Shown in pieces: positions 53,601 through 60,185 of a stretch of 64,000 bases of DNA. The DNA comes from Burkholderiales bacterium (lineage in GTDB: Bacteria > Pseudomonadota > Gammaproteobacteria > Burkholderiales > SG8-39): contig DASPMF010000296.1 of NCBI GenBank assembly GCA_035627155.1, positions 15,335 through 79,334 of the forward strand, read 5' to 3'. Each line of letters opens with the position of its first letter. Within the stretch, counting starts at the first letter, position 1. The position numbers and the translations under genes were made by a program. Below the pieces are notes generated by a model, which was given only the letters and a program-made list of their open reading frames with translations, searched no databases and was not told where the DNA came from.

Positions 53601-54374
53601 CTACGCGAACAGGGCCCGCAGCGCGTCTCCGGGGTCCTTCGCGCGCATGAAAGCCTCCCCGACGAGGAACGCTTCCACGCCCGCCGAGCGCATGCGCTGG
53701 ACGTCCTCCCTAAGCGCGATGCCGCTCTCCGTCACGACGATTCGCTCTGCAGGAACGCGTGGCAGCAATTCCAGCGTGGTTTCAAGGCGCGTCTCGAAGG
53801 TGCGCAGGTTGCGGTTATTGATGCCGAGCAGCGGTGTCTTCAATGCAAGCGCGAGACCCAGCTCGCGCGCGTCGTGTACCTCGACGAGTACCGCCATGCC
53901 CTGCTCGAATGCGCACGCCTCCAGCTCCGCCATCTGCGACGGAGCAAGGCACGCGGCGATGAGGAGGATGCAATCCGCGCCCATCGCGCGCGCTTCGTAC
54001 ACCTGGTAGGGGTCGATCACGAAGTCCTTGCGCAGCACGGGCATCGTGCAGGCGGCGCGCGCGGCGAAGAGGTGCGACGGGGCGCCCTGGAAGAACCGCG
54101 CGTCGGTCAGCACCGAGAGGCAGGCGGCGCCGCCGCGCTCATAGCTTCGCGCGATGGACGCCGGATCGAAGTCGCTCCGCAGCACGCCCTTGGACGGACT
54201 CGCGCGCTTGACCTCCGCGATGACCGCGGGCCGCTTGCCGAGCACCGCCGCCACGAAATCGCGAGCAGGCCCAGCCGCGCGCGCCTCGGCCTGGAGGCGG
54301 GTAAGCGGCACGCTGGCGCGCGCAGCAGCGACTTCCGCGCGCTTTGCGTCGACGATCGTATCGAGGATCGTCAC
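53601..54374 (-). CDS. trpC: Indole-3-glycerol-phosphate synthase
   Basis: The tail of ORF 53601..55910, from the GTG at 54374, which overlaps the trpD stop (GTGA). The protein reads [13 protein letters not shown]...[13 protein letters not shown]...LRKDF...VEVH...GINNRNL. Confidence 0.95.
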
Positions 54375-55398
54375 TTCAGCGACTGGGTGAACGCGACGAA
54401 GCCGTCGAGCTTGCGTTTGGCCTCGCCACTCTCCACGGCCTGGAGGGCGCGCTCGATGCCGCCCTTCAGCGAACCGGCCAGCCCGGAAACATAGATGGCG
54501 GCACCCGCGTTGAGGGCCGCGATGCTGCGGGCCGGTCCCGGCTGGTTGGCAAGCACGCCGAGGATCATGTCGCGCGACTCCTCCGGACCGTGCACTTCGA
54601 TCCCGCGCCGGTCGTAGAGCTCGAGCCCGAAATCGGAGGGATGGATGCGGTATTCCTCCACCGCCCCGTTGACCAGCTCGCCAACCAGCGTTTCGCCCGA
54701 GATCGAGATTTCGTCCAGGCCGTCCAGACCGTGGACCACCATGACGTGCCGCGATCCGAGCCGCTGCAGCACGCGCACCTGGATGCCCACCAGGTCGGTA
54801 TGGAAGACGCCCATGACCTGATTCCTGGCCCCGGCCGGATTCGTGAGCGGGCCGAGGATGTTGAAGATCGTGCGCACCCCGAGCTCCTTGCGCACCGGCG
54901 CGGCGAACTTCATCGCCTGGTGATGGGCGGGGGCGAACATGAACCCCAGGCCGATGCGCTCGATGCATTGGCCGGTCTGCAACGGCGAGAGGTTGATATT
55001 GGCGCCCAGGCTCTCGAGCACCTCCGCGCTTCCCGAAGAGGAGGAGACGGAGCGTCCCATGTGCTTCGCAACGCGCGCACCGGCAGCCGCGGCGATGAAT
55101 GCGGCGCAGGTCGATATGTTGAACGTATGCGCCGAATCGCCGCCGGTGCCGCAGGTATCGACGAGGTGCTTGTCGTCCTTGACCTCCACGTGGGTCGCAA
55201 GCTCGCGCATCACTTGCGCCGCGGCGGCGATCTCTCCGATCGTCTCCTTCTTGACGCGCAGCCCGGTAATGAACCCGGCGATCTGCGCGGGGGTCAGCTC
55301 GCCGCGCATGATCTGCCGCATGATGTGGAGCATCTCGTCGTGGAATACTTCGCGGTGCTCGACGGTGCGCTGGATCGCCTCGGCGATGGTGATCGGTT

Positions 55399-55402
<4 letters not shown>
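54371..55402 (-). CDS. trpD: Anthranilate phosphoribosyltransferase
   Basis: The protein reads ...[19 protein letters not shown]...GNPAG-like region...NAGAAIY. Confidence 0.96.
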
Positions 55403-55970
<568 letters not shown>

Positions 55971-55974
<4 letters not shown>

Positions 55975-57482
55975 GCGGCCGCCTTACGCGGCGGCTGCTC
56001 CGCCGACGCGATTTCCGCCGCCCGCAGGAGGGCGCGCGCCTTGTGCTGCGTTTCACGCCATTCGGCCAGCGGGTCGGAATCCGCGACGACGCCGGCAGCC
56101 GCCTGCACGTGCAGCATGCCGTTGCGTACGACCGCCGTGCGGATGCCGATCGCGACGTCCATGTCGCCATTGAAGCCGAGATAGCCCACCGCTCCGCTGT
56201 AGATGCCGCGCTTGACCGGCTCGAGCTCGTCGATGATCTGCATGGCGCGTACCTTGGGCGCGCCCGTCACGGTGCCCGCCGGGAAGCTGGCCTTCAGGAC
56301 GTCGATCGCATCCAGCCCGGTACGGATGCGGCCCTCCACGTTGGACACGATGTGCATCACGTGCGAATAGCGCTCGACGACCATCTGCTCGGTGACCTTG
56401 ACGCTTCCCGCGCTTGCGATCCGGCCGACGTCGTTGCGGCCCAGATCGATCAGCATCACGTGCTCGGCACGCTCCTTTGGATCGGCCAGGAGCTCCTCCG
56501 CGCGCGCAGCGTCCTCCGCCGGCGTCGTCCCGCGCGGCCGTGTCCCGGCGATTGGTCGCAGCGTGACCGTGCCGCCGGAAAGCCGGACGAGAATCTCCGG
56601 CGAGGCGCCGACGACGTGATGGTCGTCGAAATCGAAATAGAACATGTATGGCGACGGATTGAGCCCGCGCAGCGCGCGGTACAGCGCGAGCGGCGAGGCG
56701 TCCAGCGCGCGCGAGGTCCGCTGCGAGACCTGGACCTGCATGCAATCCCCCGCGAGGATGTATTCCTTGGCGCGCTTCACCGCGTCCACGAAGCCGGCTT
56801 CGGTGAAGCTGCACTGCAAAGGCGCCTGCGAAGCAGCAACCGACGAAGGGAAGAGCGCCAGCGGATCGGCGACGGGCGCCGCCAGCCGCGAGAGCAGCTG
56901 GCCGAGCCGCGCCTGCGCGCGCTCGAACGCGCCCGGCTCGCGGGGGTCTGCGTAGACGACCACATAGAGCTTGCCGAGCACGTTGTCCACGACGGCCAGC
57001 TCGTCGGAGACCAGCAGCAGCGCGTCGGGCGTGCCGATCACGTCCGGCTTTGCGCCGGCGAGCGCCCGCGGCTCGATGTGCCGCACGGTGTCGTAGCCGA
57101 AATAGCCCACGAGGCCGCCGCCGAAGCGCACGCTCGCGGGCGCCGGGGCGACACGATGCCGGGCGAGCCATTCCCGCGCATAGCGGAACGGGTCGCCGTG
57201 CGCCACTTCCTCCAGGCATACATCCGTGCCGCGGGCGTCGCGCAGCAGGCGGCGCAGCGAGCCGCCGCGCGCTTCGACGCGCTCGGCGCAGGCGAGGCCG
57301 ATGAACGAATAGCGACCGAAGCGCTCTCCCCCGACGACCGATTCGAGCAGGTAGGAAAAAGGTCCGCCGGCCAGCTTGAGGTACACCGCGAGCGGCGTGT
57401 AGAGGTCCGCGCGCGCTTCGGCGATCACCGGCACGCGGGTAAAGCCCTGCGCGGCGAGCGCCTTGAATTCGAGGTCGGTCAT
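55971..57482 (-). CDS. trpE: Anthranilate synthase component I
   Basis: 503 aa, reading ...[17 protein letters not shown]...GTRPRG...NDVGRI...[15 protein letters not shown]...[10 protein letters not shown]. Confidence 0.96.
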
Positions 57483-57665
57483 GTCGTCGCTTCCACTGCA
57501 GACTGCGATGGGACGGGAACTACGCTTGCGGCATCAGGAGAGCGCGCCGCCGAGCCGCCCGGGGCGCGCGAGGATCTAGCGGCGCCAGGGGCGCCAGCTG
57601 CGCCAGGAGAGGACTGCTGCGGAAGAGGTGGAATTCACGACGGCGCAGAATATAGCACGCCGCAT
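57483..57665 (-). promoter_or_regulatory. Candidate trp leader region (leader peptide ORF 57576..57638, or ..57665, plus GC hairpin)
   Basis: On the reverse strand, GTG at 57638 gives VNSTSSAAVLSWRSWRPWRR-stop. An in-frame ATG at 57665 overlaps the rpe stop. A hairpin of about 10 bp, GCGCGCCCCG...CGG(C)GGCGCGC, follows the stop codon. Confidence 0.55.
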
Positions 57666-58324
57666 CAGGCGAGCTGCGAGCGCATCTCGCGGATCACCGC
57701 GGCGTAGTCCGCCGCCCCGAAGATGGCCGACCCGGCAACGAACGTATCGGCGCCTGCGCGCGCTACCTCGGCGATGTTTTGGGCCTTGATGCCGCCGTCC
57801 ACTTCCAGCCAGATGTCCTTGCCGGTCGCGGCGATGCGCTTGCGCGCCTCGGAGATCTTCGGCAGGACGCCGGGGATGAATTGCTGGCCACCGAACCCCG
57901 GATTCACCGACATGAGCAGCACGAGATCGAGCTTCTCGATCGTGTAGTCGAGGTAGTCGAGCGGCGTGGCGGGGTTGAACACCAGGCCGGCCTTGCAGCC
58001 GTGCTCCCGGATGAGCTCGATCGTCCGGTCCACGTGCTCCGACGCTTCAGGATGGAAGCTGATGATGTCGGCGCCGGCCTTGGCGAAGTCGGGAATGATG
58101 CGATCCACCGGCCGGACCATCAGGTGTACGTCGAGCGGCAGCTTCACATGGGGCCGGAGCGCAGCGCATACGAGCGGGCCGACGGTCAGGTTCGGAACGT
58201 AATGGTTGTCCATCACGTCGAAGTGGATGACGTCCGCACCGGCGGCGGCCACGGCGCGCACCTCTTCCCCAAGCCGGGAGAAGTCGGCGGAAAGGATGCT
58301 TGGCGCAATCCGGGATCTGCCCAT
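57665..58324 (-). CDS. rpe: Ribulose-phosphate 3-epimerase
   Basis: The protein reads ...[17 protein letters not shown]...[15 protein letters not shown]...VNPGFGGQ. Confidence 0.96.
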
Positions 58325-60185
58325 GTCATGGCATTCTATCGCCCGCCTCAGGCGCGCACATGTGGAGAGTCGTTTGACGAGGGAAGACGCAGAAGCGAAG
58401 CATGAATTGGCCGACTCGCTGCGTCGAACCGGCAGATTCGCCGAAGCCCTGGAGCTCTACCGGTTCCTGCTTTCCGGGAACCCGCAGGACGCTCGCGCGC
58501 ATGCCGGATTCGTGCATTCGCTACGCGCTTCTGGACAAGTGCGAGACGCGGCTGTGGCGGGCGAGCGTGCGGTTACCGCAGCGCCCTCCTATGCCCCGGC
58601 ATGGTTCCATTTCGGCGCGGCGCTTGCCCTGTGCGGCCGTTCCGACGAGGCGCTGGCCGCATACGAGCGTTGCATCGGCATGGATGCCCGCTATGCCGAG
58701 GCCTGGAGCAATCTCGGCGCATTGCTCGGCGCGCGCGGCGACGTCAAGGGCGAGATCGAGGCTTACCGTCGGGCGATCGAGGCGAGGCCCGACCTCGCGC
58801 CGATCTGGATCAACATCGCCAGCGCCCTCTACGCCTCCGGAGAATTGGTGGAGGCCGAACGTTCCTGTCGCCGCGCGCTGGAGCTCGAGCCGCGCGCGGC
58901 CGGGGCGTGGGTCAACCTCGGCAATGTTCTGAAGGATCGCGGGCGGCGGCCCGAGGCCCTCCAGGCTTTCGCCGAAGCGATCGAGTGCGAACCGGGCTTG
59001 CCCGAAGCGTGGCTCGGCCAGGGCATCGTGCAGCACGAGAATGGCGACCACGCAAGCGCCGTGGCGTCGCTCCAGCGTTCCTGCCTTCTCAATCCCAAGC
59101 TCGTCGAGGCGCACGTGAACCTTGGACGCGTGCTGAGCTACCTTGGCGAGCAGGGATCCGCGATTGAGTCCTTCCGGCGCGCGCTCGCCATCGACCGGGA
59201 TCATGCCGAGGCATCATGGTCCCTGTCCTTGCTCCTGCTCGCCGCAGGCCGGCTGGAGGAAGGCTGGCGCCTCTATGAGAGCCGCTGGCGCCGGCGCTCG
59301 GCCGCATCGCCGCGCTTTCCGCTGCCGAGGGCGGCACCTCGCTTCGAGCGCGGCGAATCCGTGCTCGTATGGGGCGAGCAGGGCGTCGGGGACGAATTAC
59401 TGCACGCGCCACTCGCACGGGAACTGACCGCCCTCGGAGTCCATGTCACCCTGGAGTGCGACCCTCGGCTCGTCACGCTCCTCAAGCGCTCCCTTGGCCG
59501 AGTCGCGGTCGTACCGCGGACCGATCCGCCTTCCGTCCAGGCCGGCGCCTTTGACCACGCCGTGCCGGCCGCGAGCCTGGGAAGCGTCCGGCGCCCGTCG
59601 TTTGAGCATTTTCCCGCCGATGGAAGCTGGCTCAAGCCGGATCCTGCGCGCACGGACGCGATCGCTACGTGCCTGAAGCGCAGCGGGCACCGTCGGACGG
59701 TGGGGATTTCCTGGAGAAGCCGCAATCCGGACATCGGCAAGACGAAATCGGTGCCCCTCGAACTGTGGCGGCCCGTGCTGCAAATGACCGACTTCGACTT
59801 CGTGAGCCTGCAATACGGCACCACCGACGCGGAGCTCGCGCAGATCGAATCGATCCTCCCCGGACGGGTGTCCGCGCTCGAGGGTCTCGACCTCACCAAC
59901 GATCTGGAGGATCTGGCGGCCCTTGCCGCCAACTGCGACCTCGTGCTCACGGTCAGCAACGTGACCGCCCATTTTGCCGGTGCGCTCGGCCGGCCGACAT
60001 GGGTCATGGTTCCCGCGGGGAGGAGCCGGCACTGGTACTGGTTCGCCGGCCGACGCGACAATCCATGGTACCCAAGCATGCGCCTGTTCGCGCAGACCCG
60101 GGTCGACGAATGGCCGCCCGTCATCGAGGACGTCCGTGCCGCCCTCGCCAGCTGGGGCGTGGCACACAATAGAATTCAGCCATGA
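58323..60185 (+). CDS. TPR-repeat protein fused to a GT9 (heptosyltransferase-like) glycosyltransferase domain
   Basis: ORF 58206..60185. The first start not inside rpe is ATG 58323; in-frame alternatives are GTG 58362 and TTG 58374. There are about 8 TPR units ([36 protein letters not shown]...). The C-terminal half has [14 protein letters not shown], ...TVGISWRS.. and ...[23 protein letters not shown], typical of GT9. Confidence 0.85.

Follow-up and report, generated by a model that had tools for sequence, protein, structure and literature searches.

A conserved tryptophan-codon leader upstream of trpEGDC in a betaproteobacterial lineage, and its possible action through the trpE ribosome-binding site

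We analyzed the spacer between rpe and trpE in a Burkholderiales bacterium (GTDB lineage SG8-39; assembly GCA_035627155.1, contig DASPMF010000296.1, positions 15,335 to 79,334), where the window refers to this whole stretch of 64,000 nucleotides (nt), whose own numbering is used throughout. The spacer spans 182 nt on the minus strand, ends at the trpE ATG at 57482, and contains a short open reading frame (ORF) rich in tryptophan (Trp) codons that, judging from its sequence and conservation, is very probably a Trp-responsive leader controlling the trpEGDC operon. A helix, here called P1, is predicted between the start of this leader and the trpE ribosome-binding site (RBS), and the chance that sequestration of the RBS is the main output comes close to even. 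We lean slightly toward the statement as a whole—i.e. that a Trp-sensing leader ORF controls trpEGDC, with translational sequestration of trpE as its output. The original prediction of a trp attenuator at this site was correctly located and is very probably right about the Trp-sensing identity of the element, and probably wrong in reading the hairpin behind the ORF as a terminator and in coupling the leader to rpe.

The leader ORF begins at a GTG (57638-57636), ends at a TAG (57578-57576) located 93 nt upstream of the trpE ATG, and carries three Trp codons, W12, W15, and W18, at 57605-03, 57596-94, and 57587-85, in full agreement with the minus-strand sequence first described. The repeat formed by these codons and their neighbors, TGGCGC-N3-TGGCGC-N3-TGGCGC (9-nt period), has a single exact occurrence in the 64-kb window, and 3 matches with up to 2 mismatches compared with 0.14 expected. 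Counted over all six frames, the window, whose GC content is 68%, holds 35 clusters of at least three in-frame TGG codons within 9 codons, and the expectation for one strand of a 182-nt spacer is ~0.05. The fold of the whole spacer is not better than that of dinucleotide shuffles (z = +0.77), and at 68% GC the folding of a single spacer sequence is uninformative. Given that Trp clusters are frequent and the spacer fold is unremarkable, the sequence by itself is suggestive, and it is conservation that carries the weight.

Searches with curated models place the leader in no described family. Specifically, Rfam (57000-58200, E <= 10) returns nothing except a chance match to sX6 within trpE, with RF00513 (Trp_leader) not matched, and nothing relevant is found by Rfam in 12 relatives at gathering score. 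The 20-aa leader peptide and a longer 29-aa form of the same frame also have no match in Pfam or NCBIfam at E <= 10.

A total of 160 loci encoding TrpE relatives were taken from genome and metagenome collections, 152 of them with enough upstream sequence for comparison. The closest relatives, with 73-78% TrpE identity, come from Nitrosomonadales/Burkholderiales-type metagenome-assembled genomes and from soil or sediment metagenomes, and scans of genomes and metagenomes found no relative above 78% identity. In 127 of the 152 loci, trpE is directly preceded by a short frame whose end carries two or more Trp codons, and a short upstream ORF with a terminal W-R/W-P-W-R motif is present in 107. The latter belong to four classes: Comamonadaceae-type (MFIHH...GAWPWR; 52 loci, e.g. 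L018, L021, and L030, at ~120-150 nt before trpE), Pseudomonas-type (ARWRWR; MKVIKALARWRWRA; 25 loci), the window's own class, hereafter WIN-type (...W-R-x-W-R...; 19 loci), and Alcaligenaceae-type (...AYWRWWR...; 11 loci). Orthologous ORFs ending in WRxWR are found in L001, L081, L083, L084, L086, and 13 further loci, and all five of the named loci, which are the closest leader-bearing relatives, have 2-3 Trp codons in a WRxWR(R) tail (...SAVLSWRRWRSWRS in L001, ...SLRWPSWRPWRR in L081, ...SSPWRSWRRWRR in L083, and ...LLSWRSWRRWRR in L086). The first Trp codon lies at codon 8-13, about one extra ribosome footprint from the 5' end.

Conservation of the Trp codons among relatives had been set in advance as the test of the Trp-sensing claim, and they are conserved at 107 of 152 loci and across four classes. 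In Pseudomonas aeruginosa, the leader trpL1 (RWRWRA) is translated, and replacing its Trp codons abolishes the miaA-dependent derepression of trpE (PMC13434334). Taken with this experiment, the conservation of the Trp codons argues strongly for a genuine Trp-sensing leader. Two relatives whose TrpE is 76% identical to that of the window, L082 (250-330) and L085 (90-160), have no leader, which was thus lost, or never gained, at these loci within the window's clade; the leader is therefore dispensable. At L082, the end of rpe (GTGGTATAG) directly abuts the trpE ATG.

The evidence for an output through the trpE RBS is the complementarity between the first ~10 leader codons and the Shine-Dalgarno (SD)/AUG region of trpE. 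In P1, GUCGU pairs with ACGAC, UUCCAC or CUUCCGC pairs with GUGGAAG, and GCAG pairs with CUGC, such that the helix closes the whole leader. It is found in the minimum free energy (MFE) folds of the window, L001, L081, and L084, and partially in that of L086. The same architecture is built from other sequences in L092 (GGUCGUGAUCCACGGAA with UUCCGUGGAGUCGUCAUGACC), L144 (CAGUCGUGCUGCACGAAUUUG with CAAAUUUCGUGGAGCAGCACCAUGACUG), and L024 (UCAUCAUGGCACCGCGCGG with CCGUGUGGUGACCCAUGA), while L081 has a perfect 12-nt complement (AUCUCUCCGCUG with CAGCGGAGAGAU).

We compared, by permutation, the duplex energy of each leader with its own trpE site and with the sites of other loci. Leaders pair significantly better with their own site (-27.7 vs -21.4 kcal/mol; 0 of 100,000 permutations as low), also when both start codons are excluded (-18.4 vs -14.3; 0/100,000). 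The result is the same with 15 representatives sharing <60% identity (0/200,000), and six very divergent representatives give p ~0.01. Control pairings are flat, including those of the W-region with the RBS, of region 4 (a segment past the GC hairpin described below) with the RBS, and of the W-region with region 4. Pairing of region 0 with region 4 is reached by 125 of 20,000 permutations, probably because P1 spills into region 4. A "relay" model, in which the post-hairpin region and the trpE RBS compete for the 5' segment of the leader, was considered and is unsupported, its controls being flat. Among the other classes, the leader:RBS test is not significant for Comamonadaceae-type (p = 0.19) and Pseudomonas-type leaders (p = 0.15; 2930/20,000), and gives p = 0.02 for the Alcaligenaceae-type; the co-variation is specific to the terminator-poor WIN-type group. 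We found no description of a helix between leader start and trpE RBS in the literature searched, although the leader class itself may have been predicted previously.

The position of a putative promoter suggests that the leader ORF is probably nearly leaderless and starts at the conserved GTG. The last rpe codons hold a candidate extended -10 element, and 18 of the 24 WIN-type loci have TGnTATAGT at the corresponding place in the alignment, whichever gene lies upstream (rpe, gph, or other). In all six of the closest sequences, this box ends 8-10 nt upstream of the GTG (10 nt in the window), so that the predicted 5' untranslated region (UTR) would have only ~1-4 nt. At the aligned site of L144, a consensus scan of the intergenic upstream region finds a complete sigma-70 promoter (TGGACA-18-TATAGT), and in L008 there is a TGGACA-18-TAGAGT match (9 of 12) offset by 2 nt from a TATAGA element. 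The consensus scan of the window found 0 promoters, the candidate being missed because it has no -35 match. At several loci, the box falls within the final codons of the upstream gene: in L083, L084, and L086, the rpe stop TAG sits inside the TATAGT, and in L003, L006, L007, L088, L090, and L092, the box lies within the 3' end of gph, where it encodes D-A-I-V.

Behind the leader stop, the GC hairpin with one bulge that was originally described is indeed present at 57569-57542 (GCGCGCCCCGGG-CGG-CUCGG(C)GGCGCGC), with an energy of -21.7 kcal/mol for the isolated 28 nt and -23.1 kcal/mol when the 48 nt past the stop are folded. With the window leader folded by partition function under ribosome constraints, the probability of this hairpin is 0.72 if no ribosome is present and 0.99 if one is stalled at W15 or W18. 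It falls to 0.10 when the ribosome is stalled at W12, in which case the W18 unit pairs with the 5' arm; competition of a UGGCGC unit with the hairpin, as had been suggested, is thus seen in the folds. With a ribosome on the stop codon, the probability is 0.00, and the 3' half instead pairs with CUGAuGCCGC of region 4 in a 3:4-like helix. A terminating ribosome would block the hairpin because the 5' arm starts 6 nt past the stop, inside the footprint. On these models, the GC hairpin probably behaves as a "2:3" element—i.e. one formed in the stalled state and antiterminator-like, with a polarity opposite to that of a terminator.

The GC hairpin is kept in the six-member clade of the window, with both partners of one pair replaced in two sequences, and co-variation within the clade is below significance (68 of 500 shuffles reach the score). 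For the alternative 3:4 helix (GCGGCUCGG with CUGAuGCCGC), 79% of cells are paired vs 34-41% in slid controls; the helix is conserved, yet shows no co-variation, and likewise has no U residues after it. Between the W15 and W18 units, RNAalifold finds a small hairpin with 96% of cells paired in the six clade members and no co-variation, as the columns are invariant. This hairpin can form only without a ribosome on the Trp codons, and, by analogy with the 1:2 element of Escherichia coli trpL, its near-perfect palindrome (GGCGCC-CCU-GGCGCC) could act as a polymerase pause hairpin. An (A/C)CCGCAG or GCCGCA motif is found 1-10 nt past the hairpin in most WIN-type leaders (57527-57532 in the window), and follows post-stop hairpins directly in L001, L002, L005, L008, L095, and L144. 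In the Alcaligenaceae-type locus L049 (~2920-2935), a CCGCAG-type motif shares nucleotides with the 5' arm of a genuine terminator. RNAalifold also proposed that GCCGC pairs with GCGG of the SD (4 bp), a pairing that is unsupported given the flat test of region 4 with the RBS.

In the sequestration reading that we favor, a first ribosome would start on the GUG while the RNA polymerase is still ~150 nt short of the trpE start. With ample charged tRNA-Trp, this ribosome would reach the UAG, keep the GC hairpin from forming, and depart, upon which the bare leader would fold back on the newly made trpE RBS (GUCGU:ACGAC plus CUUCCGC/UUCCAC:GUGGAAG). P1 would then block initiation at trpE and also further initiation at the leader, and the untranslated, C-rich RNA might be cut short by Rho. 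With scarce tRNA-Trp, the ribosome would stall at W12, W15, or W18, and its footprint, perhaps together with a queued second ribosome, would cover the anti-RBS while the GC hairpin formed downstream. The trpE site would stay open under these conditions, and the operon would be translated. The location of the anti-RBS relative to the stall sites varies: in L081, the 12-nt SD complement ends in the first Trp codon, with L084 and L086 being similar, and in the window the best anti-SD segment (ORF nt 12-23) falls at the margin of what a W12-stalled ribosome would cover (W12 = nt 34). More tentatively, and with somewhat less than an even chance of being correct, a betaproteobacterial and mostly uncultured lineage may have a trp leader that no longer drives a terminator, its nearly leaderless GUG sensor locking both starts unless a stalled ribosome or a queue of two opens the helix. 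Such a leader would be a translational switch set by ribosome occupancy, on an operon classically associated with transcription attenuation.

Several observations weigh against this mechanism. The window P1 is interrupted (5 + 6-7 + 4 bp) and modestly better than shuffles (p ~0.04), and equilibrium folding shifts the predicted openness of the trpE site just from 0.31 to 0.45; the case for P1 is accordingly built on co-variation and geometry, and not on thermodynamics. In many WIN-type relatives, the anti-RBS is located in codons 1-5, beyond the footprint of a single stalled ribosome, and there the model depends on another ribosome queued behind the first, a speculative element. The distance of the hairpin from the stop also varies among WIN-type loci, and its role is therefore not uniform: in L005, L121, and L144 it starts 11-15 nt past the stop and would form whatever the position of the ribosome. 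The model does not account for what the GC hairpin or the conserved CCGCAG motif does, and we infer the transcription start site, hence the leaderless status, from sequence. Lastly, trpE mRNA levels change in Pseudomonas (PMC13434334), and an output at the transcript level is possible.

One such output is Rho-dependent attenuation, where the naked C-rich RNA of a released leader would load Rho and terminate transcription before trpE or early within it, with a stalled ribosome or the GC hairpin denying access to Rho and P1 reinforcing the effect by keeping trpE untranslated. We regard this as unlikely to be the primary output. Rho termination controlled by a leader ORF is known for E. coli tnaC, Salmonella mgtA, and E. 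coli topAI/toiL, and in the present case there is no intrinsic terminator, the excess of C over G in the leader is +8 to +15% (-160 to -60) compared with -0.3 +/- 6.6% in the trpEGD coding sequence, and conserved C-rich motifs (CCGCAG, AGUUCCCC) lie past the hairpin. However, the C-rich RNA extends over just ~60 nt, part of which is structured, and Rho alone does not account for the co-variation between the leader 5' end and the trpE RBS. Rho is, moreover, compatible with RBS sequestration and not exclusive of it.

Classical attenuation, as put forward in the original prediction, would have the hairpin at 57569-57542 act as a Rho-independent terminator once the leader is fully translated, with stalling leaving the UGGCGC units to form an antiterminator with the 5' arm. 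The energy of the hairpin and the ability of the W18 unit to pair with its 5' arm fit this proposal, as does the GC hairpin followed by a U-run in Alcaligenaceae-type relatives (e.g. L016, L026, and L049), and other bacteria are known to terminate transcription at weak U-tracts with the help of NusA/NusG. We nonetheless find it quite improbable. In the tail of the hairpin (UCUCCUGAU), 3 of 8 nt are U and they form no run, and the consensus scan of the window found 0 terminator-like sites. U-rich tails, with 5 or more U in the 8 nt after a stable hairpin, are found in 73% of Alcaligenaceae-type loci, but in 15% of Comamonadaceae-type, 11% of WIN-type, and 0% of Pseudomonas-type loci (0/25), and in 0 of 6 members of the window's clade. 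The predicted dependence on ribosome position is also reversed, with the hairpin absent when the ribosome is at the stop and near certain when it is stalled at W15 or W18, and the pairing of the W units with the 5' arm amounts to ~5 bp against the 12 bp of the hairpin. With no U-tract terminator and no match to a curated model, the leader is therefore not a plain member of the classical trpL family.

A further possibility is that the functional leader is a 29-codon form translated by reinitiation after rpe from the ATG at 57665, with no separate promoter. This in-frame ATG exists as originally noted, with the rpe stop TGA (57667-57665) overlapping it (57665-57663) in TGATG, and the frame is open from there to the TAG at 57576. 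Read-through transcripts are likely, as no terminator was found between rpe and the leader, and in L081 an extended rpe frame apparently ends, by eye, in a TGA that overlaps the leader GTG. However, no relative examined has the ATG, in contrast to the GTG and the TGnTATAGT box, both of which are conserved, and the box precedes the leader also where the upstream sequence is gph or intergenic. The proposed translational coupling to rpe finds no support in this comparison, and we consider the 29-codon form very unlikely to be the functional leader. Finally, that the ORF arose by chance in a GC-rich spacer and has no regulatory role, for which the number of Trp clusters in the window, the unremarkable spacer fold, and the absence of a leader in L082 and L085 might be cited, is effectively refuted by the conservation of the Trp codons in frame and position at 107 loci in four motif classes, alongside an exact TGGCGC triple repeat that is unique in the window and an experimentally supported homologue in Pseudomonas.

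The genes around the leader form one row on the minus strand, consisting of rpe, trpE, trpG, and trpD, identified by NCBIfam, and trpC, identified by Pfam (Table 1). There is no gph between rpe and trpE in the window. Upstream of rpe, two long ORFs at 58521-59204 and 59273-60169, both on the minus strand, have no Pfam or NCBIfam match. The Rfam match to the small RNA sX6 is located at 57235-57270 on the plus strand, antisense within trpE, with a score of 15 bits vs a gathering score of 40 (E = 0.24), and is most likely a chance match from a GC-rich hairpin.

Table 1. Positions of the leader, its predicted RNA elements, and the neighboring genes in the window
Feature	Position	Strand	Basis
rpe (ribulose-phosphate 3-epimerase), upstream gene	57665-58324	-	NCBIfam TIGR01163, E = 5e-96
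In-frame ATG in TGATG, optional start of the 29-aa form on read-through transcripts	57663-57665	-	Sequence; not conserved
Putative extended -10 element TGcTATATT	57649-57657	-	Conserved TGnTATAGT at aligned position
Predicted P1 5' strand (anti-RBS): GUCGU 57641-37; UUCCAC 57633-28 or CUUCCGC 57625-19; GCAG 57617-14	57614-57641	-	MFE/duplex predictions, co-variation test
trpL-like leader ORF: GTG start, 20 codons (VNSTSSAAVLSWRSWRPWRR), TAG	57576-57638	-	Sequence; orthologous ORFs
Regulatory Trp codons W12, W15, W18 (of 20), each in a UGGCGC unit	57585-57605	-	Sequence
Small hairpin between W15 and W18 units (AGC-U-GGCGCC / GGCGCC-GCU)	57578-57599	-	RNAalifold, six sequences
GC hairpin, 12 pairs, one bulge, starting 6 nt past the stop, no U-tract	57542-57569	-	Folding
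Region 4, CUGAuGCCGC(A); can pair with hairpin segment GCGGCUCGG (57558-57550)	57527-57537	-	Constrained folds
trpE initiation region, predicted P1 3' strand: CUGC 57501-498; SD-like GUGGAAG 57496-90; ACGAC 57487-83	57483-57504	-	MFE/duplex predictions
Controlled operon trpEGDC	53601-57482	-	NCBIfam + Pfam IGPS
trpE	55971-57482	-	NCBIfam
trpG	55399-55974	-	NCBIfam
trpD	54371-55402	-	NCBIfam
trpC	53601 to ~54370	-	Pfam IGPS

Control of trp genes by a Trp leader peptide is a textbook case, and one further example is routine annotation. No long-standing open question is involved, and the element is an ordinary one with an unusual output stage. The comparative result is what is worth keeping, namely a group of betaproteobacterial trpE leaders with no terminator, with a co-varying pairing between leader start and RBS, and probably with a leaderless transcript. 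If true, one and the same Trp-codon sensor would, within Proteobacteria, have switched its output from transcription to translation, in parallel with the Cys attenuators of mycobacteria, and the group would be a defined RNA family for addition to annotation pipelines.

Among known systems, trpL1 of Pseudomonas (P. aeruginosa PA14, and the attenuation of trpE/trpGDC in P. putida) occupies the same place, with rpe (sometimes gph) followed by the leader and trpE, and has the same core of UGG-CGN repeats (RWRWRA vs WRSWRPWRR in the window). Pseudomonas-type leaders also resemble the window in having no strong U-tract after the hairpin. They differ in that the leader has 14 aa, an ATG behind a 5' UTR, and 2 Trp codons, and in that leader:RBS co-variation is not significant; the two leaders are too short and divergent for proof of common descent.

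The trpL leader of E. coli (RF00513, Pfam Leader_Trp) is, as in the window, a short ORF with clustered Trp codons immediately upstream of trpE, and its peptide has the Trp cluster followed by Arg (...WWRTS). The alternative pairings predicted for the window may likewise depend on the position of the ribosome, with the segment after the stop corresponding to "region 2" of E. coli. The window differs by having no 3:4 terminator with a U-run, no Rfam match at E <= 10, and no peptide model, and we know of no pairing between leader start and trpE RBS in E. coli. When Trp is in excess in Bacillus subtilis, translation of trpE is shut off by a leader segment that base-pairs with its SD, which is similar to the pairing proposed here for an upstream leader segment. 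Sensing in that system depends on the TRAP protein, which binds (G/U)AG repeats (Babitzke laboratory), and not on a translating ribosome, and there is no leader peptide.

In Sinorhizobium meliloti, trpL (rnTrpL) is leaderless, as predicted for the window, lies upstream of trpE(G), and, like the window leader, has three Trp codons, but is followed by SL3, a canonical terminator that ends in a U-stretch, and a 110-nt small RNA is released that acts in trans (PMC6614838). The mechanism proposed here is essentially that of the leaderless poly-Cys short ORFs of mycobacteria, where an AUG or GUG short ORF carries the regulatory codons, there is no terminator, and a stalled ribosome prevents an RNA duplex from hiding the RBS of the gene downstream (Canestrari et al., 10.1101/834739). 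The differences are that the regulatory codons are Trp rather than Cys, that the lineage belongs to Betaproteobacteria rather than Actinobacteria, that an additional GC hairpin is located past the stop, and that the anti-RBS of the window includes the leader start codon and lies far upstream of the stall site in many relatives. For the actinobacterial LEU element, a base stem to the SD has been predicted (PMC1262725), and the switch we propose would be reminiscent of this stem.

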